From assembly GCA_964187785.1 (NCBI GenBank), contig OZ076409.1, positions 49,478,001 through 49,542,000 on the forward strand: 64,000 bases of DNA, written 5' to 3'. Position 1 is the stretch's first letter, and each line of letters starts with the position of its first letter. A program made the position numbers and the translations under genes. Positions 5,301 to 25,416 of this stretch are shown piece after piece. A model generated the notes under the pieces. It was not told the DNA's origin and made no database searches. It saw only the letters and a list, made by a program, of their open reading frames with translations. The stretch comes from Amphiscolops sp. MND2022. Its lineage: Eukaryota.

Positions 5301-7609
5301 GTGCTAGAAAATTGGGAAAACCTAATTTTAGGACGAGAAAAAAAACGAGAAAAAAATTATTTAAAAAAAATACTTTTTAGGCTTTTTCGAAGTCCAACTT
5401 GTTGCAAAATATTTAAACAAGTGAAGGGCACCCTTTAGCGACTATAAAATTTTTCGAAAAAAGTTCACAAAGCCGAAATAACCAGCAGGAAAAGTTTCTG
5501 TCAAGTGCGAAACTCGGACCCACGTCTTTCTGTTTTTCAGACGTCAAAAAAACCTGCACAATTCTTGTGCCAAGTGGCAGTAGAAATAATTACATCTTAC
5601 TAAGGAGCAGCTCATAAAATACACAAAATCTGTCAGTTCTTCAAAAGTTTTAAAAAATCACACCACCTATAATCTGCTCTTTCTCTGAAAGCGCCGACTG
5701 AAAAATCCGATATAGCTCAAAGTTTCGAACTTCTGCCTCCTCTTTCGTAAAACACGTTATATTTCAATTCTTCGAATTTAACGTCACAATTCAGACAATG
5801 CGCAATGCTTTCGATCCTCCTCCACCTCCTCTTTAGTAAAATGCAAACGGACGAAAAAAATGCCGGCTGAAGCAGAGACTGGAACCCGCGACTGTTGGAT
5901 TCCCACTAAACCGATTAACTTGTACACCAAAAAAGTGGTACATATAGATAGAGTGAGCTCTGTAATCTGACAAAAAATCGAAAAAAGTTGCACAGTGTCG
6001 AAAAAATTCAAAAGGGGACCCCTTACTGTCGTCCGGTTTGTAGGTTACGTTAAAAAGTAAATAAAGACAGGGGAACCCTTTGCAGTAAGTTTCCGTTTTG
6101 GCCTCTGTAGTTTCTGTAAAAAGTGGACCTTTCATGTCTGTGGTCTGGAGAAAAAAAAGGGTCACTGTTAGAGTCGTGCATTTTTTGCTCCACAAAACGT
6201 GCCGACTAAAAACAAGACATTCATATGAATATGACCATGATAGCGAATTTGCAATCAGAACAGGAAAAAAGCAGACTGCTTGTCATAACCCCGCCCTTGA
6301 GATAAGTGGATGAATAAAATAAAATCCTAGAAAAAATTGCAATTTCCATTTGAATCTATAGAAGTAAGTTCAATGAGTTTGACATGAGCATTTCCATCGA
6401 ATAGTGTCAATACTAACAAGACGGGAACGCCTAAAGTCGGGGCTATATCTAAAGCTCTAAAAGCGCAAAGTTTTTAAAATTGTAAAAGGGGGAAACTTTG
6501 GGTTTTTTAAAAATCCAGTTTGTTGCAAATTATCAAAAAAAATTGAAGAGGGGACCTTTTGGCGACAAAAAAATTTTGAAACAAAAGTCTCAGTGCCGAA
6601 AAAAATCAAAGGGGGACCCTATAGTCTCGTACGGTTTTGTATCGTTTGTATCGTTAATAATGGAGTAAATGAAAGGGGGGACCTTTTCTCTATTTTTCTA
6701 CTAAACATAATCAGTTTTTAGGCCTAGGAAACGAGACCCAGTTGAAGTCTGAGACACTTTAAACGACATTTAAAAAGATACTAATCAGCTTATCATTAGT
6801 TTCTGCCGAGAAGGAATGTCTTTGGTTTGTGAAAATTTCACCACAATTTATGTACCTGTGTCATCCATAATACGTCTGATATCAAAATCAAAACACTTTA
6901 CAAGTCTCCATGAGCATTTATGGTTTATACATCTACATCGATGTATAAAAATTACATGCAATTTCAGTCATTCATTTTACTTGGATATGCAATACTTGGA
7001 TATCTCTCTTTTCTTCTTTTCCCAATGCTCGCTCATTCCATTTCCCTCATTCTAATCTCGGGGAAAGGAAAAGTAAAAGTGATGAAGTATGCTAAAACAG
7101 TTGATAGCAAGGGGTGCTCGGAGAAAGGCCATCTAAGCAAACCGCAAAACAGTGCTGGAATATTACATGTAAAAATTTCATGGACACGCCTGGCTAGAAT
7201 TTTTAAACATGAATCTCTCAAGCAAATGCAATATTTTTGCCGTTCGAACCGCCATTTACGTCATTTTAAAGCATTAAATGGCAATTTCGTATTTGAATTG
7301 GGAGGGGATAATGTCAACATGATTGTGATTTCTAGACATCACGGTAATGAACGCCCCTTAAATACTTCTTCGGTTGAATGTTTTTGAAAGGTAATTCCTG
7401 TAACAACACTAAGCAAAGAAAAATAAGAGCCGTTAATCTGGTCTATATTAATTGATTTTTTTTTGAAATTCAGAAATATAATCATCGAAAAGCTTCAATG
7501 AATCTTCTACCATCAACACTAACGAGTTCGTCAAAATTGACTTGCAGTTCCGAGTTTTGAAATTTAAAGTTACATTGATTACTTGAAATGGAAATCAAAT
7601 GAAATTTCA

Positions 7610-7863
7610 AAAAACCTGGCTGCATTTTTTTGAGACTCATAAATCCGTTGCTCAAAATTGAAGTCCTAGGATTAATAATAATTTCAGCGCCTTGTTGAAG
7701 AACTTTCCACCTTTGCCGAGCGTCTTATCATAAAAATTTTTATGATAAGACGCTCGGCAAAGGTGGAAAGTTCTTCAACAAGGCGCTGAAATTATTATTA
7801 ATCCTAGGACTTCAATTTTGAGCAACGGATTTATGAGTCTCAAAAAAATGCAGCCAGGTTTTT
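7610..7863. repeat. Perfect 254-bp palindrome (127-bp arms, no spacer)
   Basis: Centre cataaaaa|tttttatg at 7736/7737. Arms are complementary out to aaaaacctggc...gccaggttttt. A partial third copy of the arm lies at about 8126-8190. Confidence 0.95.
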
Positions 7864-9376
7864 AAAATATTATTTATTTATTATTATTTATATTTATTTT
7901 AAAATAAATCAGACACTAAACCCGAGCTCGAATTTGTTCATAAAAGCTTCGAAGATTTGGATATTTCACGGGCTATGTATCTAAGAGTCAAAAACTAACT
8001 TGATGAACTCATCAGGCAAAAGCGTCTTAAGACCAGGATTCTTAACCGTGTTGACTCTCCAGGCAAACATGCAGGTAAACATGCAAGAAAGGCACGTAAC
8101 AAGAATGGTTTAGTGTCGGATTTATTTTTTATGATAACAAGACGCTCGGCAAAGGTGGAAACTTCTTCAACAAGGCGCTGAAATTATTATCTCATACTGC
8201 GAAACGTGAATCGTCAAAATTTTGAGTTTTTTGTGGCTATTTTTGAGTTAATCAATGCTTCAATATAGTGGATTCATATTTTGAGCACAAAATATTTATA
8301 GAGAATTAAAAAAAAACTGATTCGGTTTAAATGAGAGTATTCATCTAAGTTTAAGTTCATTTAGAGATTAATTGTACACCTTATTCAGACCTGAACTGAA
8401 GATATTAAAAAAGTTATTACCACACAAAATTTGGGCAATAGGGAATTGCTGGCATCGAAAGAGCAGGTAATGTTTGAGCTCATGTTTTGGCATGTCGACT
8501 TGTGATCATCGTTCGCTTCAGTGTCCAAAATACCTGAAACATTAAAGCATAGTCAGAGAGCTTTATTTACATTAATTACATTAAATTTAGAGACAAGATT
8601 AATGCGACTAAAAGAGTGAAGCAAAATACGTTCCTGCAAGATGTCACGGTGTTACGCAACGAATTTGAAATTTGTGTGATCGTTTAAATTTTAAAAACAT
8701 TTTGCGATTTCGTTTCTCGGTGTCTTGCGTTTCGTAGTACGAATGTAGTTCTTAAATGTTTTTTTTCCACACATTCGTGGCTTCTCTAGAGAGTCAATCA
8801 GGAGTGCCTATAATGTCTGGTTATCAATTAAAAGATTAATCTAGACTGAAGAGCTTCTCAATTAGGGACAAAACACAAAATTAAGAAGATTTGAGACAAT
8901 TTGATACAAAATGCTAGGTGTTTTTAACCGGCGCAATTTCCTTTAGGGAAAAAAGTCCGACTATTACAGTTGTTCTAATCTCAACAACTAAGCTTCTAAT
9001 TTAAAGGAGAGGGTTAAGATAATTTCTATATGTATAGTTCGGCAACTATATCATAAGTACCAAAATGTATATAATGGTAAATCTAATTAAGTATGTAGCA
9101 AAAGTTCTGTTTGTAAATAAACATGGTAGGCTAGACACATAATAGAGTGTGAAGTTCTTTGAACCGAAACTCGGTAGAGGTCAAACCGGAATGAACCGAA
9201 TATGACAATAGTGACTAGTTTTTTGTCATAATGTATGGTAACAGAATGTATGTGAGGTGAACACTCTATACAGAACTAAAATACTGGACCAGCGAGCATC
9301 TAAATTAGTGCAAAGGATCCCCCTTTCATTTATTACACTTTAACGTAAGATACAAAACAGGACAAGACTATAGGGT

Positions 9377-11473
9377 TGTCACGACCCGCTCCCGGTCGGG
9401 ATTATTCTTGCTGCAGTGGCGTGCCGGGATTCAAAAGGGGGAGAGGACACGGAAGGCCTAAGCAAAGCTAAGTAAAATACTGAACTTACCTTGTCTAAAC
9501 TACAGCACGAACTAAGGATTAACGGAAGCGCAACGTGAAATATCCAAAAATGATCTTGAGCAAAATAGGATTTCTGATTTAAAGTTTTCACATGTAATCA
9601 CTTTACTACATCCGGTTTTGTTTCTGAAAAATCCATGACAATCTAAATACTAAAAAGAAACATTCATAACACTGTGATCAATTCTCGTCCTCTCCACACT
9701 GAAATGAAAACATTAGTTAATACCGTGGTCCCAACGGAATGCATGTGATCTAAAATAAGGAAAATACAGAGAGAATTTAATAGACTTGTTTCCAAAGTCT
9801 GAAGTAGTTGTTAAAAGCCACTCAAATTACAGTCAAGTAATTTGAATAAACCTTTACAACGCTATGGCAACGTCAATCAGATAAACAAGTTGCTAGTATT
9901 CCTAATTTAATGAACCAATAGCGTCGCTGCTAAGGACGGAATGTTTGCGCTCGAGCTAGTAAGGACCATTCTAATGACGTCATTAAGAACGAATTTAAAG
10001 ATGGCGAATTGCTCCGCTCTAACTTCGCTAGCTACTAAGCTAATCTTAATACGTACGTAGCATCTACGGGACGAATTGTAAGCTAAAGAAACTATAGCTA
10101 ATCTTAATACGTACGTGACATCTACGGGGAAGATTGTAACTTGGCAAAACTATACTTAATGTTAATACATGCAAAATAACTGTGGAAAAATCTGAGACTT
10201 AGGGACTAATGCAGTATATCAGGACATTCCTTGGAACACGTAGAATTTTGTTAGGACAACCAAAATATTGTAGGATTCAATTATTTCCTCCCGATTTTCC
10301 TCTGTTCTTTAAGCAATCTAAACGTTCGTGCTGTAGGACCAAGGCAAAAGTGAATTTCTTAATGGAAGGTGCTTTTCTTACTTTTAAGAAAATGATTTAC
10401 GTACTCAGTACGTCTTAAAATGTTGTTGCTTTCCACGTTGTTTGTTATTTTGTAACCATGTTTGATAGTATCATGTAAAAATCACGCAGGTTTATCGTTG
10501 CCAATTTCTGGTTTATAATAACCAAATTTCAGTTTGTATTCGTCACTTTCTCGGTATCATTTGTTCCTTATCAAACATTTGATTTCAGTAATCCAAAAAC
10601 TTAACCGAAATATTTCCGTGACGAATTTCACTTGTTACTTTGTTGCTGCAAGTTGAAAATCTTGCCGCTCATAAGATGAATCATTGTTCATGCCCGCGTG
10701 CCTTTCGTGATGGAAGTTTAACTAGACATTTATTTTACCGCTCTTTTGAGATTAAACCGGAAATGAGGATGATGAACAAAAATGAATTCAACAAGTACTC
10801 CGCAAAAGGGACGTGACTAGGAATTTTAAATTATGAACAACTAGTTAAAGGGTTGAAATAATAAGGATGACTAAGTGATTTTTATGAACAAAATGGATTT
10901 TTAGGATTCCTAGGAATTTTTAGGTGAGGAACAAATGATGCTGAGAAGGTATATATAGTTGTAGATACTTTGAAAAATCAATCCAATCTTTTGTTTCCCA
11001 ATTAATCAATTTGTTCTGTTGATACAATAAAGCTCGCTTCTTCGACGAATTAACATATTTCCGAAGACTTCTCTACCATAAACTTTCAAAGATGACTACT
11101 AGAAGCCAGAAAAGAAAAGCGGTTGAAGAATTAGTCTCTACTGAAATCGAAACACCGGTTCCAGAAATTAGTCTGAGCGAAAATCCCGTAGCGGGAACAA
11201 GCAAATCTCCTAGAGTCATTTCTGAAAACCTAGAAAATATTAAATCGGCTCTTAGAAAAGAGATAATGACTGATCTTACTAAAATCTTAGCCGAGAACCA
11301 GAAGGAGATGCTAAAACTGATAGCTCCAGTAACTAAAAAACAAACCCTAGTTAGAGCTTCTGAAGAAACTGATTCTGATCCCGAGGACATCCCGGAAAAT
11401 GCAACATCAACACCTATAAAAACCAAATCCACTGCGACTACTAATAGGATTACCCCGGTAAATAGTCGTAACA
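9377..11473 (+). repeat. 5' LTR (2097 bp)
   Basis: TG...CA ends with an 8/9 inverted repeat; matches 23210-25306. Contains about 59-bp tandem units (10038-10175), TATATATA at 10950, AATAAA at 11026 and the gag ATG at 11092. Confidence 0.97.
10950..11031 (+). promoter_or_regulatory. Putative LTR TATA box and polyadenylation signal (U3/R/U5 boundary region)
   Basis: TATATATA at 10950-10957 followed about 70 nt later by AATAAA at 11026-11031. The same order occurs in the third element (62359 and 62376). Confidence 0.6.
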
Positions 11474-12504
11474 TGGTGACAGGAGTCCTCAATGACTCAA
11501 CGAACCTCGGAAAGAAGAAAACACGACCGCATCGCCCACAAAGTTTGCCACCCAACGAACGGCCTTCGACATCACGCCTACTCTTCGCTCCCCAACCGGA
11601 AATACACCAGCTGCCACACCTACCCCCAATGCCCAAAGCACTCACTGCATCATTGCCCGTATTCGATGGTAAGTCAGAAAAATTCGAACTTTTCGAGGAC
11701 TTATTCCGGAACAACATAAAAATGTACCCACACCTAACAGAAATTCAAAAAATCAACTATTTCCACTCACTGCTACGAGGCAATGCACTACAAGCATATT
11801 GCAACTTAGACGATGCCAAAAAAGATAACTTAGAGGAGGTAATTACGGCGTTTAAACGGCGCTTCGGAGATTTTCAATCTTCTGCCAAAGCGAGATGCGA
11901 ATGGGACTCGCTACATTTTGACCCAACCAAACAAAAATTACATGAATTTTTGGATACACTGCAAAAAACGGCTAAAGAAGCGTTCGGCTCTGAAGCACAA
12001 AAATTTATAGACAAGGCCATATACGCCAAAATGCCAGACCACGTCAAAAAGATCCTCAACCGAGCCTACCTCGAGGACAAACCCTATAATGATATTGTCC
12101 TACATCTCGAACGAGAGATGCGCCTTAACGGTCTAGGAGCCCCAGACGAAACCACACTAGTACCACTAAATACGGTCGACGTCGTCCCATCGGAACCAAA
12201 AAAGGAACTCACCCAACGAGGAAGTTGCTTCCACTGTGGTAAACAAGGACACTATAAAGCACAATGCCGCAAATTAAGAAAAGATCGTTACTATGAAACT
12301 AAAACACAGAACGCTGTCCCCAAAACCATTGAACCACCCAAACCAAAGTGCGACACTTGCGGGAAGCTCCACAAAACCGAGAACTGCTGGTACGGAGCTA
12401 ATGCGGCGAATGACCCCAGGAAGAAACGTCATGAATTCACAATACCCACTAGCCAAATCAGCGAACAACCAATCCCCACTGTTGAAATTCAGTCAAAAAA
12501 CTAA
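11092..12504 (+). CDS. gag: Gag polyprotein (470 aa); first 127 codons lie inside the 5' LTR
   Basis: Capsid-like LPVFDGKSEKFELFEDLF...LRGNAL region, CCHC knuckle CFHCGKQGHYKAQC and a second knuckle CDTCGKLHKTENC; lies directly upstream of pol. Confidence 0.95.
   Translation: MTTRSQKRKAVEELVSTEIETPVPEISLSENPVAGTSKSPRVISENLENIKSALRKEIMTDLTKILAENQKEMLKLIAPVTKKQTLVRASEETDSDPEDIPENATSTPIKTKSTATTNRITPVNSRNMVTGVLNDSTNLGKKKTRPHRPQSLPPNERPSTSRLLFAPQPEIHQLPHLPPMPKALTASLPVFDGKSEKFELFEDLFRNNIKMYPHLTEIQKINYFHSLLRGNALQAYCNLDDAKKDNLEEVITAFKRRFGDFQSSAKARCEWDSLHFDPTKQKLHEFLDTLQKTAKEAFGSEAQKFIDKAIYAKMPDHVKKILNRAYLEDKPYNDIVLHLEREMRLNGLGAPDETTLVPLNTVDVVPSEPKKELTQRGSCFHCGKQGHYKAQCRKLRKDRYYETKTQNAVPKTIEPPKPKCDTCGKLHKTENCWYGANAANDPRKKRHEFTIPTSQISEQPIPTVEIQSKN
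11474..11488 (+). promoter_or_regulatory. Primer-binding site (probably complementary to a tRNA-Leu)
   Basis: TGGTGACAGGAGTCC immediately after the LTR-terminal CA; an identical 15-mer occurs at 62733. The tRNA-Leu assignment is inferred from resemblance to known Leu acceptor ends. Confidence 0.8.
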
Positions 12505-12548
12505 AAACGCCGCGCCTCCGCTTCGGGGAAACGGTAGACGCGAGGGCG
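12495..12548 (+). promoter_or_regulatory. -1 ribosomal frameshift signal (A_AAA_AAC plus GC-rich stem-loop)
   Basis: Heptamer at 12495-12501 directly before the gag TAA. The -1 frame is open from there into pol. Downstream cgccgcgcctccg-cttcgg-...cggtagacgcgagggcg can fold into a hairpin. Confidence 0.85.
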
Positions 12549-12590
12549 TACACAATAGAAGACCCCCCAAATCGCTATGAAGAAGACTTC

Positions 12591-15500
12591 ATGACAGAAT
12601 GCAACGAAGAACCGACACAGGACTGGCAACGTCGTTGGAACGTAGGCATGATCCTCAGACACAATGCACGACACCCAGAAGACCCAACACCACTACCCCA
12701 ATGGATAACAGAATCGCCTGATAACTACGCGACACTAAAAAGACCCCTACCAGAATCAAAGACCGAACGCATCTACATATATGACAAAGACTACAGATGT
12801 GACCCCTGGGATGAACCAGCCATCTATGACACAAACAAACTCTCTTTTAAGATCCAAGTTTCAAATCCTCAAGCTCAAGTTACCGAGAGTACAACCCTAC
12901 CAACACCTTTGTCACCAATCCTAAAAAAGACGTCACAGTCCTCGCCAGTACCCGTCACCACCACGTACACACCAATAGATGCAGAGAATATTATCTGCAT
13001 CGAAGACAAAACAATATGGTCACAACAAGCAAAAGAACAACGAGGAGTAGCTGACCAAACAGTTTCACCCCCAACAACAACATCTGAATGGCCAAATCAG
13101 AACAACAACCACGAAGACGACGAAGTAACGGAATGCCCACAACAACTGCCATACGATCTCAACATCATAAGAGAATTCATACAACATGATAAAGATGACG
13201 ACTACATTCCGTTAATGTCGGCAATTACCCTCAAAAAGAAGAAAAGAATGCTCTTTATTCCTCTCGACTTTGAAAACACTAGAATTGATGCATTAGTCGA
13301 CTCGGGAGCCTACATCAACGTCATCAGTGAAAGAGATGCAGACAAGATACAAACTGAAGCCAACGCAACCATAATCGCGAAAGCACCTCCGCCCCCTTTC
13401 AAGATACAATATGCCAATACAGAACTCGAAAAAGCCCGTGCAACATACACAATGCAATTCAAAATCGGGGATTACGCGTTCGAGGAGACTTTCATCATCA
13501 TGACCAAAACCTCCTACCCAATCATTGGCCTGGCATTTCTCCGGAAACATTCCGCAATCCTAGACACTGCACAAGGAACAATAGACTTTCCCAAAATACA
13601 AATCACTCTAGCCCTAAAAGATGAAAGACAGAAGTGTAATCCCAAACCCATCACTATCAAAACGGAAGAAAAACACACCATACCAGCACAAGCCACGCGG
13701 ATTATCCACGCGTCCATCACTGCAAGCAACGACCACTCAATAACTGGGACAGTTCAACCCCTACCGCAGTTCGACGAAAATGCAAAACTTATAGTAGCCC
13801 CAGCAATAACAACAGCCCGAGACAAACGAGTAGCAATAAAAATAGCGAACACCACAGATTTCCCCTATACAATAACGCCACATACGAAACTAGCAGAATT
13901 ACAAATACTGAAACCCGAAGAAACGAAACTAATACGAGCAGTAGACATAGCAGCCCTCAATCTACTTACCGAACATGACGACGTTGTTGCGTACGTTAAT
14001 GCACTCATGCAAGTTGATTCGTCAGACCAAACAGAAGAGAAATTCTGGTTTCCAACACCTGAAAATCCCGGAGACGAATCGGAACACACACCCATCCAGC
14101 AACGCATTCTACGAGAACTACGCGAACTACAAAGACTAGAAGAACTGGACCCCAAACAAGATGAAAAATCTAGAACACAATTCCTCTCGCTATTTAAATG
14201 GAATGATTCACTAATAACGGGAGAGGACCGCGAAAATCTAGAGTCCACATTAGTCGAATTCAATGACATTTTTGCACGTCACCGACTAGATATCGGAATG
14301 AACAACCAGTTCAAGGTATCCCTAACTCCCAAAAACGACAAACCGGTATATACACAGAGTCTCCCCGTACCCATCAACCTCAAAGACGACCTCACAGTAG
14401 AATTGGCACTGATGCACAAATACGGGATCATCACAACCCTCCCATTCTCGAAATATGCCAGCCCCATCTTCGCGCAACGCAAACCCAACGGAAAACTACG
14501 GCTCCTAGTAGACTTACGGAAAATCAACGCCCTCATCTCAGATGACTACATAAATAACAACCACCCCATCAGCACCCTCTCGGACGCCGCGCAACATCTA
14601 GCAGGAAAGCAACTGTTCTGCAAACTAGACTGCTCACAAGCCTATCACTGCCTCCAAATGGCAGATCAAAGGTCAGTAGAACTCCTTGCATTTAATTTTG
14701 CTAGTAGAACGTTTGCCTATCGTAGGCTAGCCCAAGGCCTTAGTAGAGCCTTGTCAGCTTTTTCGAGCTTCATGCGGGAATACCTCGACACCGTCATCAA
14801 AGCAGACCAGTGTGCCCAATACGTAGACGACATCGGAATTGCCGCCAACACAACGGAACAACTCATCAAGAATATCAGAGCAGTCTTCAAATGCATCCGC
14901 AAGGCAGGACTAAAACTCACAATTGAAAAATGCCACTTTGGTGTCACCCAAATCGAATTCCTAGGGAGAACCATCACACCCCACGGAGTAGCTCCGCAAG
15001 AACACAAAATCACCAACTTCTTATCAAAAATCAGATTTCCCCGGTCAAAGAAACAAGTCCAGAAATACATTGGATTCATCAACTACTACCGAAACTACAT
15101 ACCAAGACTGTCTGAAAAAATGATTGGGATGTATGAACTCCTAAAAGCAGATGCCAAAATCACCATATCAGAAGAATTAGTCGACAACTTCAAAGCCATC
15201 AACGCGAGCCTAGCGGAAGCATGTGGGTTAGCCCTCAGACAACCAGTTGCGGGAAAACAATACGTACTAATGACGGACGCAAGCTTCCGGGCATCAGGTT
15301 ACGCCCTGATGATAGAAGAAAACGACGATAAAAAGCTACTCTCCAAACGGAAAACTTTCGCACCGGTCGCTTTCGGCTCCCGCGTATTCTCGCCGTCACA
15401 ACTGAAGATGTCGATATACTGTAAAGAATTCCTCGCAATATATCATGCATTCCTCGAATATAGTCACATTCTCTGGGAAACAACACTACCTACACTAGTA

Positions 15501-17711
15501 CTGACAGACAACAGGTCAGTAACGAGATTTTTCCAGACGAAAACAACGCCACCCGCTCTCTGGAATGCCTGTGACTACGTACTACAGTTCAAATTTCGCA
15601 TCATGCACGTAGCTGGCTCGCAAAATACAGCAGCTGATTTCCTGTCTCGCCTCGAATTAACTCCAAAAGAGAGAATCCAACTCAAATTGAGAGACGACAT
15701 CATAACAGCACCCATCGAGGTTAACCTACAGTCTACAGATGTTGCAGACGAAGAACAACTCTTTTTCCTACCAGACGAAGAAGAGGAATCAGAACAAGAA
15801 ATTTTCGCCAGGAAAGCCCTTAGCAAACAACGAGCAATAGACGAAAAGGAACAACAAAACTTGACAACGGAAGTCACTGAAACAGTACACATACCTCTCA
15901 ACTCAGCAGTATACGCTTTTGGAGCCATCAAGGAAAACGCCCGCATCCGCAACGAACAAGACGCAGACCCGATATTGAAAGCATTGAAACTACGGCTGCT
16001 TCACGAAGAATACGACAAACACCTTCTCAAGACAGAACCCAGAGGACGAAACCTACTACGTCACGAAGAAAGAATAATAGTCAAAGACGGAGTACTCATG
16101 CGTAAATACTACGGACAAGATGGCACAGTAACACATCACCAAATCCTCATACCAAAACATATAGTGCCAGAACTCCTATCGACACTACATGGAAAAATGA
16201 ACAAACACCCAGGAATAACCAAAATGATTCAGGAAAGCCGAGCAAAGTACTACTATCCGGGACTAGCGCGGAAAATTAGAGCCTGGGTAATCAACTGCCC
16301 AGATTGCATCGCCAACAAACGAATTGACACGCGCCAAATACGCCCTAAAATGCTGAGTAACACAGAATTCACATTCGGACCAGAAGATTGCCTAGAAGTC
16401 GATATACTACCAAATCTACCCTCATCAAACGGCTACAAACACATCGTAACCATGATGGATGTTTTCTCCCGTTATTTATTCGCATACCCCACTCAAGACA
16501 TGACAGCCAGAACAGTCGGCCGATGCATAATTGACGTTATGACGCGTCATTGTTATCTGCCTACAGTGATGCTAACTGATAAGGGATCACAATTCCGATC
16601 AGATGTAGTAAATCAAATTGCACAGACACTTGACATCCGGATCAGCCACGCGTCAACAAAGCATGCACAAACAATCGGCATACTCGAAAGAACGCATGCA
16701 TCTCTGAAGACTTCCCTCAAGATATCAACGGGAGAACGCCGCTCAATGTGGCACAAATACGTTCAAATTGCAGTCATGAATTACAACACTAGCTACCACG
16801 AGAGCCTAGGATGTGAACCAACAACCGTATTTCACGGACGCATCCCGTACAACATTCTGGACATCAAGCTGGGACTCAAGCCAGAATGGAAAAAAGATGC
16901 CAACGAAGACCTAACGGACGAACTACAGAAGCAAATCGCTGAAATCCACCAGGCAGCCAAGGACAACCTCATGCAATCATATTTGAAGTACAAGCGATAT
17001 TATGATAAAAAAGCGACAGCAACGCCATTGAAAATCAATGACTATTGCTACGTCCTGAACCCGAAGGCTGATAACCAGTCAATAAAATTCGCTTTCAAAG
17101 ATTGCATTTGGACAGGACCATATATAGTGGTCAAAGTCCTTTCCAATAACAATTACGTCGTAAGACGGACAGGAACTAGATATACGCAAACCCTCCATAG
17201 AATTCGCCTAAGGCTATATGCGCCCAATCAACGAGTACCTGACGTAACAGTCAAAGTGGAAGATCAACTTCCAGATCCCGAGGTTAAAACAACCCATGAT
17301 GATTGGTACGCGCAAGCTTGGGAAACCGAATTCGGAGAAGTTCTGTTCGGAACCCCAACGGAAAACGACAATGAAGAAGCTACTATCACGGAAGTACAAA
17401 ATGCAGACGGAGATACAACGGACCATGAAACAGCTACAACAACTGCAGATGAGAATACAATGATGGATAAAACATCCTCCGGAGATAACACGTCATTCAA
17501 TTTAGACGTCAGTGATAACCCTTTCATAATGACCCCGCCGCCTACAGAAAGTCCCCCAATACCGCCTACATTGCCGCCTATAGTTGTCGGATACAATCCT
17601 AGAAAAACGGGAAGATATAACCTACGACCTAATCCTAGACCTAATGCACACCCTGATTTTCGGATGCTCGACGCTATCACTACGGAAGAGAATTCTCAAC
17701 CTCAACACTGA
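12591..17711 (+). CDS. pol: Pol polyprotein (protease, RT, RNase H, integrase); probably expressed as a Gag-Pol frameshift fusion from about 12498
   Basis: Uninterrupted 1706-aa ORF with ALVDSGA (protease), YVDDI (RT), LMTDAS (RNase H), HHCC zinc finger H..HPG...CPDC, integrase core EVDIL/TDKGSQF/GILER, and a WTGPY motif. Confidence 0.98.
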   Translation: MTECNEEPTQDWQRRWNVGMILRHNARHPEDPTPLPQWITESPDNYATLKRPLPESKTERIYIYDKDYRCDPWDEPAIYDTNKLSFKIQVSNPQAQVTESTTLPTPLSPILKKTSQSSPVPVTTTYTPIDAENIICIEDKTIWSQQAKEQRGVADQTVSPPTTTSEWPNQNNNHEDDEVTECPQQLPYDLNIIREFIQHDKDDDYIPLMSAITLKKKKRMLFIPLDFENTRIDALVDSGAYINVISERDADKIQTEANATIIAKAPPPPFKIQYANTELEKARATYTMQFKIGDYAFEETFIIMTKTSYPIIGLAFLRKHSAILDTAQGTIDFPKIQITLALKDERQKCNPKPITIKTEEKHTIPAQATRIIHASITASNDHSITGTVQPLPQFDENAKLIVAPAITTARDKRVAIKIANTTDFPYTITPHTKLAELQILKPEETKLIRAVDIAALNLLTEHDDVVAYVNALMQVDSSDQTEEKFWFPTPENPGDESEHTPIQQRILRELRELQRLEELDPKQDEKSRTQFLSLFKWNDSLITGEDRENLESTLVEFNDIFARHRLDIGMNNQFKVSLTPKNDKPVYTQSLPVPINLKDDLTVELALMHKYGIITTLPFSKYASPIFAQRKPNGKLRLLVDLRKINALISDDYINNNHPISTLSDAAQHLAGKQLFCKLDCSQAYHCLQMADQRSVELLAFNFASRTFAYRRLAQGLSRALSAFSSFMREYLDTVIKADQCAQYVDDIGIAANTTEQLIKNIRAVFKCIRKAGLKLTIEKCHFGVTQIEFLGRTITPHGVAPQEHKITNFLSKIRFPRSKKQVQKYIGFINYYRNYIPRLSEKMIGMYELLKADAKITISEELVDNFKAINASLAEACGLALRQPVAGKQYVLMTDASFRASGYALMIEENDDKKLLSKRKTFAPVAFGSRVFSPSQLKMSIYCKEFLAIYHAFLEYSHILWETTLPTLVLTDNRSVTRFFQTKTTPPALWNACDYVLQFKFRIMHVAGSQNTAADFLSRLELTPKERIQLKLRDDIITAPIEVNLQSTDVADEEQLFFLPDEEEESEQEIFARKALSKQRAIDEKEQQNLTTEVTETVHIPLNSAVYAFGAIKENARIRNEQDADPILKALKLRLLHEEYDKHLLKTEPRGRNLLRHEERIIVKDGVLMRKYYGQDGTVTHHQILIPKHIVPELLSTLHGKMNKHPGITKMIQESRAKYYYPGLARKIRAWVINCPDCIANKRIDTRQIRPKMLSNTEFTFGPEDCLEVDILPNLPSSNGYKHIVTMMDVFSRYLFAYPTQDMTARTVGRCIIDVMTRHCYLPTVMLTDKGSQFRSDVVNQIAQTLDIRISHASTKHAQTIGILERTHASLKTSLKISTGERRSMWHKYVQIAVMNYNTSYHESLGCEPTTVFHGRIPYNILDIKLGLKPEWKKDANEDLTDELQKQIAEIHQAAKDNLMQSYLKYKRYYDKKATATPLKINDYCYVLNPKADNQSIKFAFKDCIWTGPYIVVKVLSNNNYVVRRTGTRYTQTLHRIRLRLYAPNQRVPDVTVKVEDQLPDPEVKTTHDDWYAQAWETEFGEVLFGTPTENDNEEATITEVQNADGDTTDHETATTTADENTMMDKTSSGDNTSFNLDVSDNPFIMTPPPTESPPIPPTLPPIVVGYNPRKTGRYNLRPNPRPNAHPDFRMLDAITTEENSQPQH

Positions 17712-17913
17712 ATAAAAACGATCAGAGAACCAAACCGAACCGGAGTGGCAACGGTAAATTTTCAACTCATAACTAAGCTACGCAAAACAATTGGACAACC
17801 AAGGTGCCCCGAAAGAATAAATCAAAGCATCACACAAGGCAGAGCCAAATAAATAAATAAAGCATCAAGAAACAACTCAACATCAAATCAACGATATCAT
17901 AGCATTATCTGTT

Positions 17914-20900
17914 TCATGGCTTTCCCAGTTTGTGAACGACGTCTGGATCACAGATATCACCTTTTTTGTTCTTCTTAGACCCCTTTGAACCACCAGCCCT
18001 GCTCTGTTTTGATGAAGCTGCTCCACTTCCTTTATCGCTACCTTTAACAGCCGGACGAACAACGGGCACATCCGCCTTCACAAATTTTGTAACTGATGGC
18101 TTATTGGTCGACTTCCTCGAACTAGCAACAGAACTCGCCACACTTCCAACCTCAGTTGAACTAGAACAATGTCTTTCACGAGCACTTCGATTCGCTTTGT
18201 TTGACTCCACATAAAATGCCTCGCACTCCTTCCGTCGCTCCGAGACATGACGACAATACAGCGATTCATAATGTTTAATGAACGCATCCATATCGCCCAC
18301 GCAGAAATCCCTCCACACGTCAAAGTCAGTAACCCTGAAGAAGTCACCAGCATTCAGAAGAGCATCACGGATAGCGGACAGGAGTGAACCAGAAAAGAAT
18401 AACCGAGCATTAAAACTAGGCCCGATAATATGGGATTGCACCATCAAAATGCACTCTTGCAGAACAGACGACTTCAGCGTGCTACCACCCAAATCTATCG
18501 TCACAGCAGGAGGGTCACTCTTCGGCAATCCAACGAAAAGGCAACATAACTTGAATAGCCGAAATACGTGGACTCGGGACTGAAATGCAAAATCCCGCAA
18601 CAGGAAACTAATGACATCATCAATGTCACTCGCAGCACACGTAGCATCCTCGTGATGTCGCCGTTTCTCAATGACATAACTTTTAAACTCAGCAGAAGCA
18701 GCATTCAAATCGTCCGGTGTCATAACACGACAAGATCTCAACAAATCACAGAGGGAACCAAACAATTCGAATATGTGAAGATCATCGCCCTCCAACATAA
18801 TTTCAGGACAGAAGCTGTAGAGTCCGCGAGAAATACCAGAAGTAACAGCAGTGCTTGTCACAATTAGTGAGACAACACGATCAATACATTCACGACACTT
18901 CACCCGAAAATCTTGCACGTCGCCAGTCTTGATTGCAGACAATCCTCGCCCAAACTCACTATGCATTAAGAATTCGCTCATAGAAATCTGATCGAACCCA
19001 GAGAGTTTTGAAACATCCATATAACTCTCCCACTCATGTATCCCAGGCAAACTGGACAACTTGCGAGTCCGCATCAGGAGGCAATAAACGAAGTTACAGA
19101 CCTCGCCGTAACCATGGAAGGCGTAATCTTTACGGCCTTGACGAAGCTTCTCAAAGTTGAAGTAATCTAAAACGAAACACCCTCGTCAACAAACACACAT
19201 CTTGCCTCCAGGACACAGCAATCAACAGAAATTGAACGCAATAGCACCAACACAATAAAGAAAGCCAATCAACAAAAGACAACAGCCAATTGAAAGACCA
19301 TACTCCTAACGAAACGTCTCCGTACTTACAAGAATCCAACAGCAGCCGAAGGAAGCCAAAGCGATGCACAATGAGACTGTCGGAGACCAACTCGAAGTCC
19401 GTACCACGCAACTGAAATAAATAACACACCATCAAAATCAAATAGCAAAAGAGGAAGACAAGCAACTATAACCGAAGAAAAAAAAAACACGGAAACACGA
19501 AGATCGAACGGAAAAACAACCAAGAAAATTACAATGTAACAGCACTCACACGATCAACGGTACTCTTGAAATGCGGATGTCCCGTGTACCGAATGAAGGG
19601 ACGTATGGAAGGCCACAGCTCAATCAGATCACTTAAGATCTCCCGCAAGTCGCAAAAGGCCACAGAACCCGCACGTATGGTTGCACGCAGAAGAGGCTTG
19701 TCCTCGCTCCAGTCTTCATACAGAGCCCCTTTCAACCGATGGATTATATACTCCACTGCTGTTGTTATCTCAATCATTCCGAAAATATCCTGGTGAGCTT
19801 GGCGAAAGCACTGCAAAAACACCTCTTCATCAAAGGACTGCCAAGACACAAAGCGACGATCATCAGTTCTCCCTGCGTCCAGCACCCGAAACAGCGAAGG
19901 ACTGGCACCACAAATAGATACGGGCATCTGTTGCCCCTCCAAGCAGTTCACAACTCGGGCCAACGGAAGCAATTCAGGGGCAGGCATCCTTTGGTCGAGA
20001 GTCTCATTGCCCACACAAATCTTTTTCAAAACAAGCCCGTCCCAGCACAGAACATAGCACCGTTCGACATGACCAGACTTCTCAAATTGCACCCCGTACT
20101 CCTTAAAGGCCTTGATGTTGCTAATCATCAGCCGAAGAACCCGAGGGGCCAGCCCTTGACAAAGAAACGACTAAAATACGTACAACCGACCTCACTCCCA
20201 AATTACTGAAAATCATCATCCCTCCCCCACACGAACAAACTACGAAATTAAACTGGCGTAAAAAGAAGGAAAGAAACGAAAAAGAAGAGAAAACAACAGA
20301 CTAACCACAGTCTCCGAACGGCTCCAACGCAAAGGAAAACACGGCTCCCGTTCGCCCAAAGTTGCACAAAAATGGCCCCACAGACGACGAAGGTAGTCGA
20401 AGTCGCCACCATTACGAAGAAACTCGAAAAAGCAGGAAACCAGGGTCATGAAGGGCACATTTGAATCAGGCTTAGAGTGTTTGGGAACCAAGTCTTCTGG
20501 AAATGGGTACTCTTCACCCAGGTCACAAAAGGGCCGTGACTTGTAATCCGCCAGCTGTCTCTCTGACAATTCCATTGGTTCCATCAAACGGTTCAAAACT
20601 TGCAACCCCATGTGGACGCGATAGGTTACGTCTTTGAACCAATGGGCATCTGATTGGAAATGCCTCCTGAACTCGCCAACGCCCTGGGACTTCATGGCTA
20701 CATCACGTTGACAGACTCGACAATTGAAGTGGGTTCCCACACCCTTTTTGGAGCCCGTCACAAAATCGGGGAAGGCAGGATGACGACTCAACATCCGACG
20801 ATGGAGTATGTTGCGACTACCATACGTCTTCACCACTTTCTTCGTCAATTTTTTCTCGACCCTTCCGCTGAACTCCTGCAACTCTGTAAAACAAAATACA

Positions 20901-22031
20901 AAAATAGGCGCACAGATGAAACCCAAATTCCGAACCACACAACTGCCCGCAACAGCGTAGCCACCGAACACACACCGTTCAACCGAAAACCAAAAAATAC
21001 TAACCATTCTGGATAGCCAAACTGGTACCCTCCTTCACTTCTTCCACTAGCCGTTGACCAAGGCGTACCACGTCCTGAGGACTTAACATCACACCACCAG
21101 AGCGATACAGCTGCTCCTCATCGTTACCTGAAACAACAACGGATGTTTAATGGCAACTTAGAGAGAATATCACCCACCCGAAAAGTTCCTGACAAAATAT
21201 GACAAACTATTCCCTTTTTTCTTCTTCCTTCCTCCAGCACCACAGAGGCAAACCAAACAACAAATGCGAAAAACAACACACTAACTAAGCCAGTTACCAG
21301 CAGCATTCATCAATGGTGGAGGAGACGGTGGCAATAACACAACCTTCTTCCCACGTTTTGAAGGCGTAACGTCACCAACAGAAGCGTCAGCCGAATTATC
21401 TCCGCGCAGAACTATAATATCAAATATACTCTGGTGCTACCACCTACATGACGTAAACATGACGCCAAAAGCAAACCTCACCAACCTGTTTTCCTCTTGC
21501 TGGGGGGATCTGTCTCACCTCCTTGAGACTCACTATCGCTGCTAGTAGCGACAACAAGGCGAGTAACAGGACTACTAGTCTCGGGGAGAGTATTGGCAAC
21601 TTGAGGAGAAACCTCAGAGCAAGAAGCGACAACTCCGGAAGCACACAATACACTGGTCAACGCATCATTGACGCTGCAAGTAGACTTGGGCGGCAGAATA
21701 GTTGAAACCGACGGCAAAACATTAGCAACAGTGGAAGATACGCCCGTAGCAGGCACGGAAACAGTCACTGTCGGGATGCCAGGTTGAGCTACTGAAAATC
21801 AAGATCTGGTTTGACGCGTCAGGGTTACGGGTAAAAGACTACAAAAGGCTGATCACCAAAAGAATAGTCAAAATACCCATGAAAGTCAGAAAGATTTTAC
21901 CAACCTGAAGAAGTAATAACAGCATCTACATCTGAGAAAACCACATCATCATCAGTATAGCAGAAATTTGTCTCGTTTCCACTCACAGTACCAGCGACTG
22001 CACCAGATGAAGGAACAACAGCGTCGTCCAT
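17914..22031 (-). CDS. Antisense gene with 8 coding exons inside the retrotransposon; predicted 1067-aa hAT-transposase-like zinc-finger protein, probably catalytically inactive
   Basis: Coding exons (minus strand): 22031-21905, 21791-21486, 21411-21298, 21127-21005, 20883-20306, 20170-19550, 19411-19330, 19166-17914. Seven GT-AG introns of 74-170 nt with pyrimidine-rich acceptors, all phase-compatible, give 3204 nt (1067 aa plus stop). Contains a CRVC...H...H zinc finger and hAT-like motif order. Confidence 0.85.
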
Positions 22032-22593
22032 AACTCGGAAGATTACAGAAGTCTTCAAGAGAATCTGAAAAAGAAGAAAACAAATAATCAAAGAAAAGAA
22101 AAGGAGAAAACTACGTCGTGCTCCCGTAAAATTTTGGAAAAAATAACAACATCATCCCTGTGTGACTAAAGAAATGTACATATTTTAAACTTCAGTAAAT
22201 GCCCATTGCGGCACCGACGGGACAAAACGTTCCCACAAAAAATGCCACTGAAGAATCTAAATTCACCAGGAAGTTCTGAAGGAAAGCTTAACAAACTAAA
22301 ATTTACGAAAGATAGACGTTATTCTACCTAAAAGAAATGAATGATGTCATTGAACCGATGACCGAAAAGGAAACAGATACTAAATTAGAAGAGTTTTCCT
22401 AAAGCTACAACCAATCGCAGCGAAAGCGGAGAGGAAACGGCTCACCGAATTAGGTCGGACCGAAACGAAAATAAAAAATCAACCAATAGGATTGCAGCAC
22501 GAGGTACGAAAAGAAGATCACCAAACGGTCATTTGTCGTATAACTTTACAAAGAACAGCTTGTTCAGCTAAAAATCTCTACCAAACTATCGAA

Positions 22594-23304
22594 ATGGAAA
22601 GTTTTCATCAACGAAGCATCATCGACATTTCGTCTGATGAAGAAGCCACTCCGTTGCAGCAGAGTACTCCAATCAAGTACTACCCTTTAAACGTAGTGCA
22701 AGCCCTCAATTTGAGCGAAGAATCAACGACGGCTAAAATGGGAAGTGAATCCAGCATGGACATAACAGCGTCGACATTTGAGTCCGGCCCCTCCCCGTAT
22801 AAAAGAATCACTTTCTCAGCCACACGTGACGAAGAAAGAGAAGAATTCTCTGTGGAAAGGCCGCCGATAACAAACTCCGAATCAAGTTTTTATGAAGAAC
22901 TCGAGTCGTCTGATGAAATGCCCCGCCTAACTCCCGCACCCACTCTGAGAGAGGTGACGAATACGTCCCAAGAGGATTACGTCCCCCCTCCGAAGACGAC
23001 TAAACTAAATGATTTAGAAGAACTATCTGAAAATGAATTGGAAGACATCTGGGGTTTGAAGCCTAACGAGGATGACTTCTACTCGCTAGCTGGACGCGGT
23101 AGCAGCTTTACATCGAAAAAACTACAAAGGAACATCAGACAACCCGTGACGGTAGTGAAAGAAATTCCTCACTGCTCTGGTCTGCCAGCTTTTCGCGCCA
23201 GAGGGGCCCTGTCACGACCCGCTCCCGGTCGGGATTATTCTTGCTGCAGTGGCGTGCCGGGATTCAAAAGGGGGAGAGGACACGGAAGGCCTAAGCAAAG
23301 CTAA
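22594..23304 (+). CDS. Accessory ORF (236 aa from ATG 22594); acidic and S/T/P-rich, SIM-like IIDISSDEE, basic C-terminus encoded by the 3' LTR
   Basis: Long ORF in an otherwise stop-rich area; it crosses the PPT and the LTR start at 23210. The ATG context resembles that of gag. Confidence 0.6.
   Translation: MESFHQRSIIDISSDEEATPLQQSTPIKYYPLNVVQALNLSEESTTAKMGSESSMDITASTFESGPSPYKRITFSATRDEEREEFSVERPPITNSESSFYEELESSDEMPRLTPAPTLREVTNTSQEDYVPPPKTTKLNDLEELSENELEDIWGLKPNEDDFYSLAGRGSSFTSKKLQRNIRQPVTVVKEIPHCSGLPAFRARGALSRPAPGRDYSCCSGVPGFKRGRGHGRPKQS
23199..23209 (+). other. Polypurine-tract-like sequence
   Basis: cagaggggccc immediately upstream of the TG of the 3' LTR; short for a PPT. Confidence 0.55.
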
Positions 23305-25306
23305 GTAAAATACTGAACTTACCTTGTCTAAACTACAGCACGAACTAAGGATTAACGGAAGCGCAACGTGAAATATCCAAAAATGATCTTGAGCAAAATA
23401 GGATTTCTGATTTAAAGTTTTCACATGTAATCACTTTACTACATCCGGTTTTGTTTCTGAAAAATCCATGACAATCTAAATACTAAAAAGAAACATTCAT
23501 AACACTGTGATCAATTCTCGTCCTCTCCACACTGAAATGAAAACATTAGTTAATACCGTGGTCCCAACGGAATGCATGTGATCTAAAATAAGGAAAATAC
23601 AGAGAGAATTTAATAGACTTGTTTCCAAAGTCTGAAGTAGTTGTTAAAAGCCACTCAAATTACAGTCAAGTAATTTGAATAAACCTTTACAACGCTATGG
23701 CAACGTCAATCAGATAAACAAGTTGCTAGTATTCCTAATTTAATGAACCAATAGCGTCGCTGCTAAGGACGGAATGTTTGCGCTCGAGCTAGTAAGGACC
23801 ATTCTAATGACGTCATTAAGAACGAATTTAAAGATGGCGAATTGCTCCGCTCTAACTTCGCTAGCTACTAAGCTAATCTTAATACGTACGTAGCATCTAC
23901 GGGACGAATTGTAAGCTAAAGAAACTATAGCTAATCTTAATACGTACGTGACATCTACGGGGAAGATTGTAACTTGGCAAAACTATACTTAATGTTAATA
24001 CATGCAAAATAACTGTGGAAAAATCTGAGACTTAGGGACTAATGCAGTATATCAGGACATTCCTTGGAACACGTAGAATTTTGTTAGGACAACCAAAATA
24101 TTGTAGGATTCAATTATTTCCTCCCGATTTTCCTCTGTTCTTTAAGCAATCTAAACGTTCGTGCTGTAGGACCAAGGCAAAAGTGAATTTCTTAATGGAA
24201 GGTGCTTTTCTTACTTTTAAGAAAATGATTTACGTACTCAGTACGTCTTAAAATGTTGTTGCTTTCCACGTTGTTTGTTATTTTGTAACCATGTTTGATA
24301 GTATCATGTAAAAATCACGCAGGTTTATCGTTGCCAATTTCTGGTTTATAATAACCAAATTTCAGTTTGTATTCGTCACTTTCTCGGTATCATTTGTTCC
24401 TTATCAAACATTTGATTTCAGTAATCCAAAAACTTAACCGAAATATTTCCGTGACGAATTTCACTTGTTACTTTGTTGCTGCAAGTTGAAAATCTTGCCG
24501 CTCATAAGATGAATCATTGTTCATGCCCGCGTGCCTTTCGTGATGGAAGTTTAACTAGATATTTATTTTACCGCTCTTTTGAGATTAAACCGGAAATGAG
24601 GATGATGAACAAAAATGAATTCAACAAGTACTCCGCAAAAGGGACGTGACTAGGAATTTTAAATTATGAACAACTAGTTAAAGGGTTGAAATAATAAGGA
24701 TGACTAAGTGATTTTTATGAACAAAATGGATTTTTAGGATTCCTAGGAATTTTTAGGTGAGGAACAAATGATGCTGAGAAGGTATATATAGTTGTAGATA
24801 CTTTGAAAAATCAATCCAATCTTTTGTTTCCCAATTAATCAATTTGTTCTGTTGATACAATAAAGCTCGCTTCTTCAACGAATTAACATATTTCCGAAGA
24901 CTTCTCTACCATAAACTTTCAAAGATGACTACTAGAAGCCAGAAAAGAAAAGCGGTTGAAGAATTAGTCTCTACTGAAATCGAAACACCGGTTCCAGAAA
25001 TTAGTCTGAGCGAAAATCCCGTAGCGGGAACAAGCAAATCTCCTAGAGTCATTTCTGAAAACCTAGAAAATATTAAATCGGCTCTTAGAAAAGAGATAAT
25101 GACTGATCTTACTAAAATCTTAGCCGAGAACCAGAAGGAGATGCTAAAACTGATAGCTCCAGTAACTAAAAAACAAACCCTAGTTAGAGCTTCTGAAGAA
25201 ACTGATTCTGATCCCGAGGACATCCCGGAAAATGCAACATCAACACCTATAAAAACCAAATCCACTGCGACTACTAATAGGATTACCCCGGTAAATAGTC
25301 GTAACA
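23210..25306 (+). repeat. 3' LTR (2097 bp)
   Basis: Copy of 9377-11473. I noticed only two substitutions by eye (actagaC/Tattt and cttcG/Aacg). Followed by the TSD AGGGT. Confidence 0.97.
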
Positions 25307-25416
25307 AGGGTATCTCTTTGATTTTTTTCAGGTACTGTGCGACATTTTTTGATTTTTTTGTCTCACCTTCAAATTTTCAAATATTTTGCAACAAACTGGA
25401 GTTTCCAAAAGCCTAA
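24925..25416 (+). other. Chimeric ORF: 127 Gag N-terminal codons from the 3' LTR fused to 36 codons of flanking DNA
   Basis: Identical to Gag up to ...PVNSRN, then diverges exactly at the LTR end (25306). Confidence 0.8.

Follow-up and report, generated by a model that had tools for sequence, protein, structure and literature searches.

The window analyzed here, a stretch of 64,000 nucleotides (nt) from Amphiscolops sp. MND2022 (assembly GCA_964187785.1, contig OZ076409.1, positions 49,478,001 to 49,542,000 of the forward strand; all coordinates below are those of the window unless stated), contains a long terminal repeat (LTR) retrotransposon which carries, on its antisense strand, a gene interrupted by seven predicted introns. 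This gene lies on the minus strand, between the end of pol at 17711 and the start of the 3' LTR at 23210. Comparison with other copies of the element and with a diverged second family has confirmed, as far as sequences can tell, that the scattered minus-strand open reading frames (ORFs) of this region are eight exons of a single protein-coding gene belonging to the retrotransposon. The reading that we favor, with a probability of roughly 0.72, is that this element-borne, eight-exon gene encodes an accessory factor which binds DNA in the nucleus and stems from a hAT transposase, and that the gene is maintained by selection on the propagation of the element.

An unbroken reading frame across seven predicted introns

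The original prediction, made on this DNA alone, had placed seven GT-AG introns and an unbroken ORF of 1067 amino acids on the minus strand. Both could be reproduced: every intron is found at its predicted place with its predicted donor and with an AG acceptor behind a pyrimidine tract, and, from the ATG at 22031, the frame runs for 1067 codons up to a stop at 17914-17916. When the exons are joined from position 22064, they amount to 3237 nt, in which frame 0 contains the terminal stop only, while the two other frames contain 48 and 78 stops. The introns, as read from the sequence and its copies, are 113 nt (intron 1, 21792-21904, donor GTTGGT), 74 nt (intron 2, 21412-21485, GTTGGT), 170 nt (intron 3, 21128-21297, GTAACT), 121 nt (intron 4, 20884-21004, GTTAGT), 135 nt (intron 5, 20171-20305, GTTAGT), 138 nt (intron 6, 19412-19549, GTGAGT) and 163 nt long (intron 7, 19167-19329, GTAAGT); introns 1 to 4 and intron 7 are in phase 1, introns 5 and 6 in phase 0.

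The predicted exons are described hereafter with the ratio of non-synonymous to synonymous differences (pN/pS) that each of them exhibits when the two families are compared. Exon 1 (21905-22064; pN/pS 0.25) contains the ATG (22031-22029), present in 30 of 30 copies, and its frame is open upstream to an acceptor-like CAG at 22067-22065. Exon 2 (21486-21791, 306 nt; 0.49) encodes a linker rich in Ser, Thr, Val and Pro, which is 21 nt shorter, in frame, in the second family, and exon 3 (21298-21411, 114 nt; 0.59) a basic patch resembling a nuclear localization signal (NLS). Exon 4 (21005-21127, 123 nt; 0.21) is followed by exon 5 (20306-20883, 578 nt; 0.12), which holds a C-x2-C-x16-H-x5-H zinc-finger motif (residues 278-304, 20642-20722) conserved in the alignments of homologues. 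Exon 6 (19550-20170, 621 nt; 0.16) aligns to the RNase H-like β-sheet core of a modelled homologue; exon 7 (19330-19411) has only 82 nt and the lowest ratio (0.07). Finally, exon 8 (17914-19166; 0.27), with 417 codons and the stop, would form an all-helical C-terminal half ending in a basic tail.

Conservation among copies of the element

A search with the gene region (17914-22064) returned 31 near-full-length genomic matches at 94-100% identity, the window's own included, of which 30 were aligned as loci. The splice dinucleotides of the seven introns are kept in all of them (210/210). The eight exon lengths are all unchanged in 21 of the 30 copies and the whole frame is open in 17, while a frameshift or a premature stop occurs in 13, as expected for insertions decaying after they have landed. 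For variants common to at least two copies, which arose in replicating lineages, the per-site density is 0.036 at the first codon position, 0.022 at the second, 0.087 at the third and 0.074 in introns. The distribution of single-copy variants is flatter (0.073, 0.065 and 0.100 at the three codon positions, 0.096 in introns).

Insertions and deletions (indels) are concentrated in the introns. Introns represent 22% of the length, and 54 of the 67 distinct indel events fall within them (59.1 vs. 4.1 per kb, p = 5e-24). Of the 13 indels in exons, 12 were seen in a single copy, whereas 25 of the 54 intron indels are shared. The original prediction had proposed that related copies be examined for conserved splice sites, for a concentration of indels in introns and for a ratio of non-synonymous to synonymous substitution rates (dN/dS) below 1 in exons. 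The first two are borne out by the copies described above, and the third by the diverged family described below, against which dN/dS is 0.09-0.11.

In 30 of the 30 copies examined in this family, on many chromosomes, the gene sits between pol and the LTR with sequence of the element on both sides. Because of this constant position, the gene is part of the element and not a host locus, which agrees with the earlier proposal of an accessory gene of the element itself.

Two further features were observed among these copies. The stop at 17914-17916 is TGA in 12 copies and TCA in 18; the window's next in-frame stop lies three codons downstream, and the TCA copies would thus yield a product three residues longer. 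Moreover, the family is a mosaic: nine of the 30 copies (L015, L019-L022, L024, L027, L029 and L030, compared over window positions 22314-23564) are only 40-60% identical to the window from about 22314-22414 to the LTR, and 69-79% at the LTR start. In the same nine copies, the antisense gene is 95-97% identical. The 3' end of pol varies as well in the family, between 85 and 97%, independently of the gene. This pattern points to recombination between subfamilies, in which the gene block would be a shared module.

A diverged second family carries the same gene

An older, related element was found on another chromosome (C5:67556000-67585999). The two LTRs of this element share 97.6% identity, its gag and pol proteins have 73 and 69-93% amino-acid identity with those of the window element, and the same antisense gene is present in it. 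With 36 further near-full-length matches, this second family occupies at least 37 places in the genome; seven copies were sampled, in which the DNA of the gene is about 70% identical to that of the window. Their exon lengths are 127/285/114 (117)/123/578/621/82/1255-1256, while all intron lengths differ from those of the window gene. Exceptions in length are confined to single copies: one has a 41-nt deletion, and two others have 1-nt indels. All introns retain GT-AG, save for one AT and one GC donor at intron 5, each in a single copy. An apparent CT at intron 3 corresponds to a donor which has slid by exactly 3 nt, to GTTGGC, with the frame preserved.

Between the two families, synonymous differences are saturated (pS 0.68-0.70) while pN is 0.16, and, with 1042-1058 codons compared, dN/dS amounts to 0.089-0.107. 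The pN/pS of every individual exon is below 1 (0.07-0.59); over the joined frame the ratio is 0.23, as compared with 1.25 and 1.55 in the wrong frames. Similarly, exons are 59-82% identical between families vs. 39-61% for six of the introns, that is all but intron 1. Collectively, this comparison shows conservation far beyond chance and, judging from the codons, a real, selected protein-coding gene.

The older element at C5:67556000-67585999 contains a tandem triplication of the 3' portion of the antisense gene, in the form of repeats of about 1.3-3.0 kb which are 98-99% identical.

Homologues in other genomes

Among 1.84 billion representative proteins, exon 8 retrieved 475 protein clusters at E ≤ 1e-3, including 58 at E ≤ 1e-30. 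Ten of these clusters were looked up and contain sequences from ENA assemblies only; six have 10 to 59 members and four are singletons. One homologue, P0147, is encoded by a single ORF of 890 residues, and a search with this protein gave 18 more single-ORF relatives of 528-887 residues. All 19 align collinearly to the joined protein across junctions 5/6, 6/7 and 7/8 (E 1.7e-42 to 8e-79). A gap within five residues of junction 5/6 occurs in none of the 19, and junction 4/5 is also spanned by two of them. No homologue of exon 8 was scored among annotated longer gene models. In metagenome contigs, 61 pattern matches were obtained from a 13-sequence alignment (A2), with no confirmed relative among them.

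A predicted hAT-type fold

The original prediction had not seen the likeness of the protein to a hAT transposase. This likeness emerged from an AlphaFold model of the homologue P0147, which was made from a 26-row alignment including the exons of the window (predicted local distance difference test score, pLDDT, 77; predicted template modelling score, pTM, 0.66; core above 90). In the PDB, this model significantly matches the Hermes hAT transposase and nothing else (Foldseek E 1.8e-5 to 6e-4, probability 1.0). With VIA-align, residues 236-728 of the model align with residues 135-609 of Hermes with Z scores of 12.8-13.6 over 383-399 residues (root-mean-square deviation 5.2-5.9 Å); the best of the unrelated chains come next, with Z 7.0 over some 85 residues. 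The arrangement typical of hAT enzymes, namely an RNase H-like core, a helical insertion and a C-terminal domain, is thus found in the predicted structure of the homologue. Language-model comparisons, to be taken as leads only, go in the same direction: for exon 8 of the window, the Dimer_Tnp_hAT set accounts for 22 of 30 look-alikes (score 0.90), and hAT-related families are among those of P0147 (0.79-0.82).

The zinc-finger motif is conserved in the single-ORF homologues (alignment A1), and both Cys and both His are invariant in the 13 sequences of A2. In the RNase H-like core, by contrast with genuine hAT transposases, the end of strand 1 and the segment after strand 4, as located by secondary structure, contain variable basic, polar, Gly or Cys residues and no conserved acidic residue. 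At those two places, three genuine hAT transposases of the same genome have Asp-containing blocks, which we take to belong to the hAT motif. The antisense protein seems to be catalytically inactive.

The genome contains 150 scored matches to Dimer_Tnp_hAT. A search for DUF4371 gave none, but it gave none in control genomes either and is thus uninformative. A nested hAT transposon was considered as a source of the gene and rejected: between 17500 and 23300, a scan for inverted repeats detected no pair whose arms enclose the gene, and the pairs that are present either have at least one arm inside the gene or are short and imperfect (12-26 nt, 71-93%). Terminal inverted repeats of hAT type with an 8-bp duplication were likewise not found around the gene.

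The upstream region and intron 1

The conserved block of the element comprises the gene together with the 280-380 bp or so that precede its ATG, and remains 90-99% identical even in the nine of 30 copies in which the rest cannot be aligned. Its non-coding part (22065-22400, minus strand; 90-99% identical up to about 22313-22413) is a candidate promoter and 5' untranslated region. An acceptor at 22065, which the original prediction took as the sign of a non-coding 5' exon, is supported by a pyrimidine tract followed by CAG, with the AG present in 30 of 30 copies and YAG in six of seven copies of the second family; no upstream exon was identified. The flank contains donor-like hexamers, GTGAAT at 22266 and GTAAAT at 22306, which are unchanged in 29 and 27 of the 30 copies, respectively, and the nine surrounding bases are identical in 28 and 25. 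An A/T-rich stretch, TTTAAAATA, is located in the same block. Because acceptor-like and donor-like motifs are conserved upstream of the ATG, a short non-coding first exon is plausible.

Intron 1 is more conserved between the two families (85-88%) than any exon. In Rfam, it gave two sub-threshold rows only (E 4.8 and 6.3). Its folding z-scores are -1.83 and -1.85 on the two strands, and 9 of 200 shuffled sequences folded as well. This intron is probably a functional non-coding element.

The carrier element

Self-comparison of the window delimits an intact LTR retrotransposon of 15.9 kb, which spans 9377-25306. Its 5' LTR (9377-11473, 2097 bp, with TG..CA ends) is 99.905% identical by self-BLAST to the 3' LTR (23210-25306); the pair differs at two positions, 10727 and 11044. 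The element is bounded by a target-site duplication, AGGGT, at 9372-9376 and, with the same five bases, at 25307-25311. A putative primer-binding site (11474-11488), which begins with TGG, follows directly 3' of the 5' LTR. The gag frame (11023-12504, 493 codons) encodes DUF1759 and a zinc knuckle according to Pfam, and the pol frame (12486-17711, 1741 codons), in the -1 frame relative to gag, encodes protease, reverse transcriptase, RNase H and integrase. Just upstream of the gag stop (12502-12504) lies an A AAA AAC heptamer (12495-12501), which we take to be a classic slippery site for -1 ribosomal frameshifting. The Pfam matches of pol include RVT_1 (3.7e-23), RT_RNaseH, Integrase_H2C2 and rve, with the order protease (residues 254-360), reverse transcriptase (665-830), RNase H (897-1030) and integrase (1222-1391), and there is no Bel-Pao-specific family among them. 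Given its 99.9% identical LTRs, its target-site duplication and its open gag and pol, the element is intact and very young, as the original prediction had surmised for its integrity, and it is of Ty3/gypsy type as classified by this set of Pfam domains.

The host genome (1.07 Gb) encodes Wnt proteins (best E 3e-45). To our knowledge, Wnt is confined to animals. The presence of these genes identifies the host as an animal and, together with a Pfam set fitting Ty3/gypsy, upholds the earlier view of an animal gypsy element.

Several features of the sense strand deserve description. The gag frame extends by 150 codons into the 5' LTR, with a first Met at 11092 and another at the junction of the LTR and the primer-binding site. 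Because the gag of the second family aligns over this LTR-internal part too, within a single 494-residue match at 73% identity, translation of gag may start inside the LTR. The spacer between the convergent stops of pol and the antisense gene (17712-17913) is 93-100% identical in the copies of the family that were profiled. Directly past the pol stop, five AATAAA motifs occur on the sense strand at 17711-17861, in this conserved spacer, and the genomic RNA must read through them; at this cluster, a shorter sense mRNA may end, or polyadenylation may be regulated. In the region which varies between subfamilies, a further sense frame (22384-23304, plus strand) has 306 codons from stop to stop, or 236 from its first Met, encodes an acidic, Ser-rich sequence and enters the 3' LTR by 95 nt. 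Of the 21 copies of this subtype, 13 have the frame open, and its shared variants by codon position (9, 13 and 20) give a weak codon signal. It could be a third sense ORF, on weak evidence.

Neighboring sequences in the window

A second, distantly related LTR element starts at about 61428 and continues past the end of the window (into contig positions 49542001-49560000). Its LTRs measure 1305 bp and are 99.2% identical, and its gag and pol share 29 and 42% amino-acid identity, respectively, with those of the first element. Directly after its pol, on the opposite strand, a 203-codon ORF matches the finger region of the antisense family (profile E 5.7e-10), and no transposase-like body is detectable in this ORF. 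Because this element carries the finger module after pol and on the opposite strand, the clade may have possessed such an antisense module for a long time.

Elsewhere in the window, decayed retroelement fragments with Pfam matches to protease and to the integrase zinc finger occupy 40400-45100. A pair of 195-bp repeats, 87% identical, is located at 40071 and 44913, and a 288-bp palindrome in perfect register (96.6%) at 7592-7879.

A proposed role and alternative explanations

Introns which are antisense to the genomic RNA of a retroelement escape splicing during its replication and survive. In the mechanism that we propose, the sense transcript alone would be reverse-transcribed; the introns of the antisense gene would be present in it as their reverse complement, invisible to the spliceosome, and would be copied faithfully. 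Following this established retroelement biology, it is their orientation, opposite to that of the genomic RNA, which would let the introns persist through retrotransposition. Since they are not spliced from the sense RNA, the gene must be transcribed separately, from integrated DNA. The antisense promoter likely resides in the conserved block of about 300 bp upstream of the ATG, perhaps with a short non-coding first exon. The protein would consist of a disordered, Ser/Thr-rich N-terminus with basic NLS-like patches, a C2H2 finger and a body of hAT architecture, as predicted from the model of its homologue. Together with the finger and the basic patches, this predicted fold suggests a product which is nuclear and binds DNA. 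Such a factor, a sequence-specific DNA binder taken over from a hAT transposon, would be trans-acting, with either the DNA of the element itself or the chromatin of the host as its target. As to what it might do there, we think, by analogy, that transcriptional or chromatin regulation of the LTR is the leading candidate, at somewhat below even odds; tethering or targeting of integration would come next, at around one chance in four, and other roles would take the rest. The factor would thereby resemble the accessory proteins of retroviruses.

Several points weigh against this interpretation. The transcription of the gene, its seven junctions, its start site and its poly(A) site are predicted ones, and no AATAAA occurs on the minus strand from the gene stop down to 16480. 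Junctions 1 to 3 are located in a fast-evolving, low-complexity N-terminus, where conservation is the sole argument for them. The hAT link, for its part, is one of predicted structure and not of sequence. Pfam has no family, Dimer_Tnp_hAT and zf-BED included, for the four exons scanned (2, 5, 6 and 8) or for their homologues: the best that exon 8 obtains is a sub-threshold match to DUF7852 (17.5 bits for a cut-off of 22), the homologues P0147, P0001, P0003 and P0013 match nothing, and the 13 members of A2 match nothing meaningful at E ≤ 10. A sequence-profile search of the PDB gave only a chance, low-complexity match (E 8.4), and hhalign of A1 against an alignment of the three genuine hAT transposases of the genome a probability of 0.1. 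The modelled homologue is only 28% identical to the window protein. A model of the window's exon 8 by itself (pLDDT 70) has no Foldseek match at E ≤ 0.001, and a wide VIA search with this exon-8-only model retrieved matches of its long terminal helix only (Z ≤ 5.9), without Hermes. Furthermore, the apparent loss of catalysis is read from secondary-structure positions, and function is assigned by analogy.

Of the alternatives, the one which best survives is that of a selfish passenger, in which a hAT-derived gene or a nested hAT remnant would be conserved for its own sake or for an effect directed at the host, with no help to the element. A fold like that of a DNA-transposon enzyme would suit such a passenger, as would the behavior of the gene block, a recombining module more uniform than the pol end and the LTR-proximal flank, and the richness of the genome in genuine hAT elements. 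However, no terminal inverted repeats surround the gene, and its invariable location between pol and the LTR means that it spreads only by retrotransposition of the element. A dN/dS of about 0.1 across families saturated at synonymous sites would also be hard to sustain unless the product raised the transmission of the element. We therefore consider this explanation unlikely.

The protein might also be an active transposase, still able to cut and join DNA, for instance on behalf of non-autonomous hAT-like elements, with the retroelement as its vehicle. The full-length hAT-like architecture predicted from the alignment to Hermes and the conserved zinc finger speak for such an activity. It is nevertheless quite improbable, as the two positions of the core discussed above are occupied by variable residues where the genuine hATs of this genome have their Asp-containing blocks, and neither profile similarity to these hATs nor flanking inverted repeats were found.

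Slightly less probable still is a constraint not exerted on a protein, whereby RNA or DNA signals that work in cis for the sense genomic RNA would be conserved and the spliced frame left untranslated. The antisense transcript is indeed a prediction, and intron 1, better conserved than any exon, indicates that non-coding constraint does exist in this region. Yet the codon periodicity of the minus-strand frame shifts its phase exactly at the predicted junctions, and the wrong frames have pN/pS values above 1. The six other introns have diverged further between families than the exons, and hundreds of homologues, single-ORF forms included, are recognized at the protein level. Finally, although multiple exons and short GT-AG introns are typical of host genes, a host gene overlapped by the insertion by chance is contradicted by the copies and has a negligible likelihood, since the whole gene lies within the LTR and target-duplication boundaries, occurs near full length in 31 places on many chromosomes and in at least 37 more in the second family, and is flanked on both sides by the element at 30 of 30 loci.

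The interpretation of an element-borne accessory factor can be extended, more tentatively and at a little under even odds, into a joint scenario. A Ty3/gypsy lineage would have domesticated a hAT transposase into a catalytically dead, antisense-encoded DNA binder, and its orientation would have let it keep or even gain seven to eight introns over many rounds of reverse transcription; this association would be old, since the neighboring element, with a pol identity of only 42%, has the same finger module at the same place, and the 475 clusters would represent a widespread, unannotated class of accessory genes that includes intronless forms.

Comparison with known systems

Human T-cell leukemia virus type 1 (HTLV-1) has a spliced minus-strand gene, HBZ, which is expressed from integrated DNA and encodes a nuclear regulator. 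HBZ has one intron, encodes a basic leucine zipper (bZIP) factor and is transcribed from the 3' LTR. Like HBZ, the gene described here codes for a protein from the minus strand of an LTR retroelement. It differs from HBZ in the number of its introns, of which there are at least seven, in its product, where a C2H2 finger is combined with a transposase-like body, and in the conserved block that lies upstream of it inside the element. The exons scanned matched neither a bZIP domain nor any other Pfam family.

With Hermes and other hAT transposases, the protein shares its predicted fold over 383-399 residues and an N-terminal Cys2His2 finger, as in BED-finger transposases. It differs from them in that sequence or profile similarity was not found, the catalytic Asp positions seem to be lost, and the gene, devoid of inverted repeats and of an 8-bp duplication, moves when its carrier retrotransposes. 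Many cases of hAT transposases domesticated by their hosts have been described, among them the ZBED proteins, DAYSLEEPER, the GTF2IRD2/FAM200 group and SLEEPER. The likeness here would be that of a transposase-derived, probably inactive, finger-bearing nuclear protein under purifying selection, for which the direct comparisons are language-model leads only. Unlike these proteins, which are encoded by single-copy host genes, the present one is encoded in many copies and its domesticator would be another mobile element.

In plants, Ty3/gypsy elements of the Retand/Tat/Grande type possess an antisense ORF, aORF-3R, located between pol and the 3' LTR and conserved within lineages, whose product is thought to be nuclear or regulatory and to be expressed from its own promoter (PMC7264820, PMC11963269). 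The Retand product is described as carrying a Transposase_28 domain (PMC7264820, PMC11963269). The present gene shares with aORF-3R its place and orientation in the element, and its preservation in different copies and lineages. The differences are the host, an animal here and a plant there, and the seven spliceosomal introns of the present gene, the word intron occurring 0 times in PMC7264820 and PMC11963269. In contrast to the Retand product, the present protein has neither Transposase_28 nor another Pfam match and is predicted to have a hAT-like fold instead; for Transposase_28 (PF04195), this negative result covers exons 2, 5, 6 and 8 and 15 homologues.

Additional ORFs shared between element types have also been acquired by LTR retrotransposons of bdelloid rotifers, according to PMC5408684. 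These are, like the present one, animal LTR elements with extra ORFs; in that text, however, antisense is used for small-RNA reads only, and intron and transposase occur 0 times (PMC5408684). In the literature available as full text, with most subscription journals and the notes of Repbase and other repeat databases outside this scope, no description of an intron-bearing or hAT-like antisense gene in an LTR retrotransposon was found, and none of a multi-intron one in an animal element. Antisense accessory ORFs are hence already known, and we rate as the new aspect the multi-intron form, with a hAT-like product, in an animal element.

Significance

LTR retrotransposons are usually described as gag-pol machines, and accessory genes are known mainly from retroviruses and from some plant lineages. 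The element described here indicates that a retrotransposon of an animal can keep a large, multi-intron gene under strong purifying selection, as it would appear, for its own benefit. It also provides a natural demonstration of how antisense orientation shields introns from loss in retrotransposition. In this gene, a transposase has likely been co-opted by another transposon and not by the host, and the protein belongs to a family with hundreds of relatives which annotation pipelines miss or would mistake for host genes. The question which it raises is what a retroelement may gain from a sequence-specific DNA-binding protein of its own, the candidates being transcriptional control, escape from silencing and the choice of integration sites.

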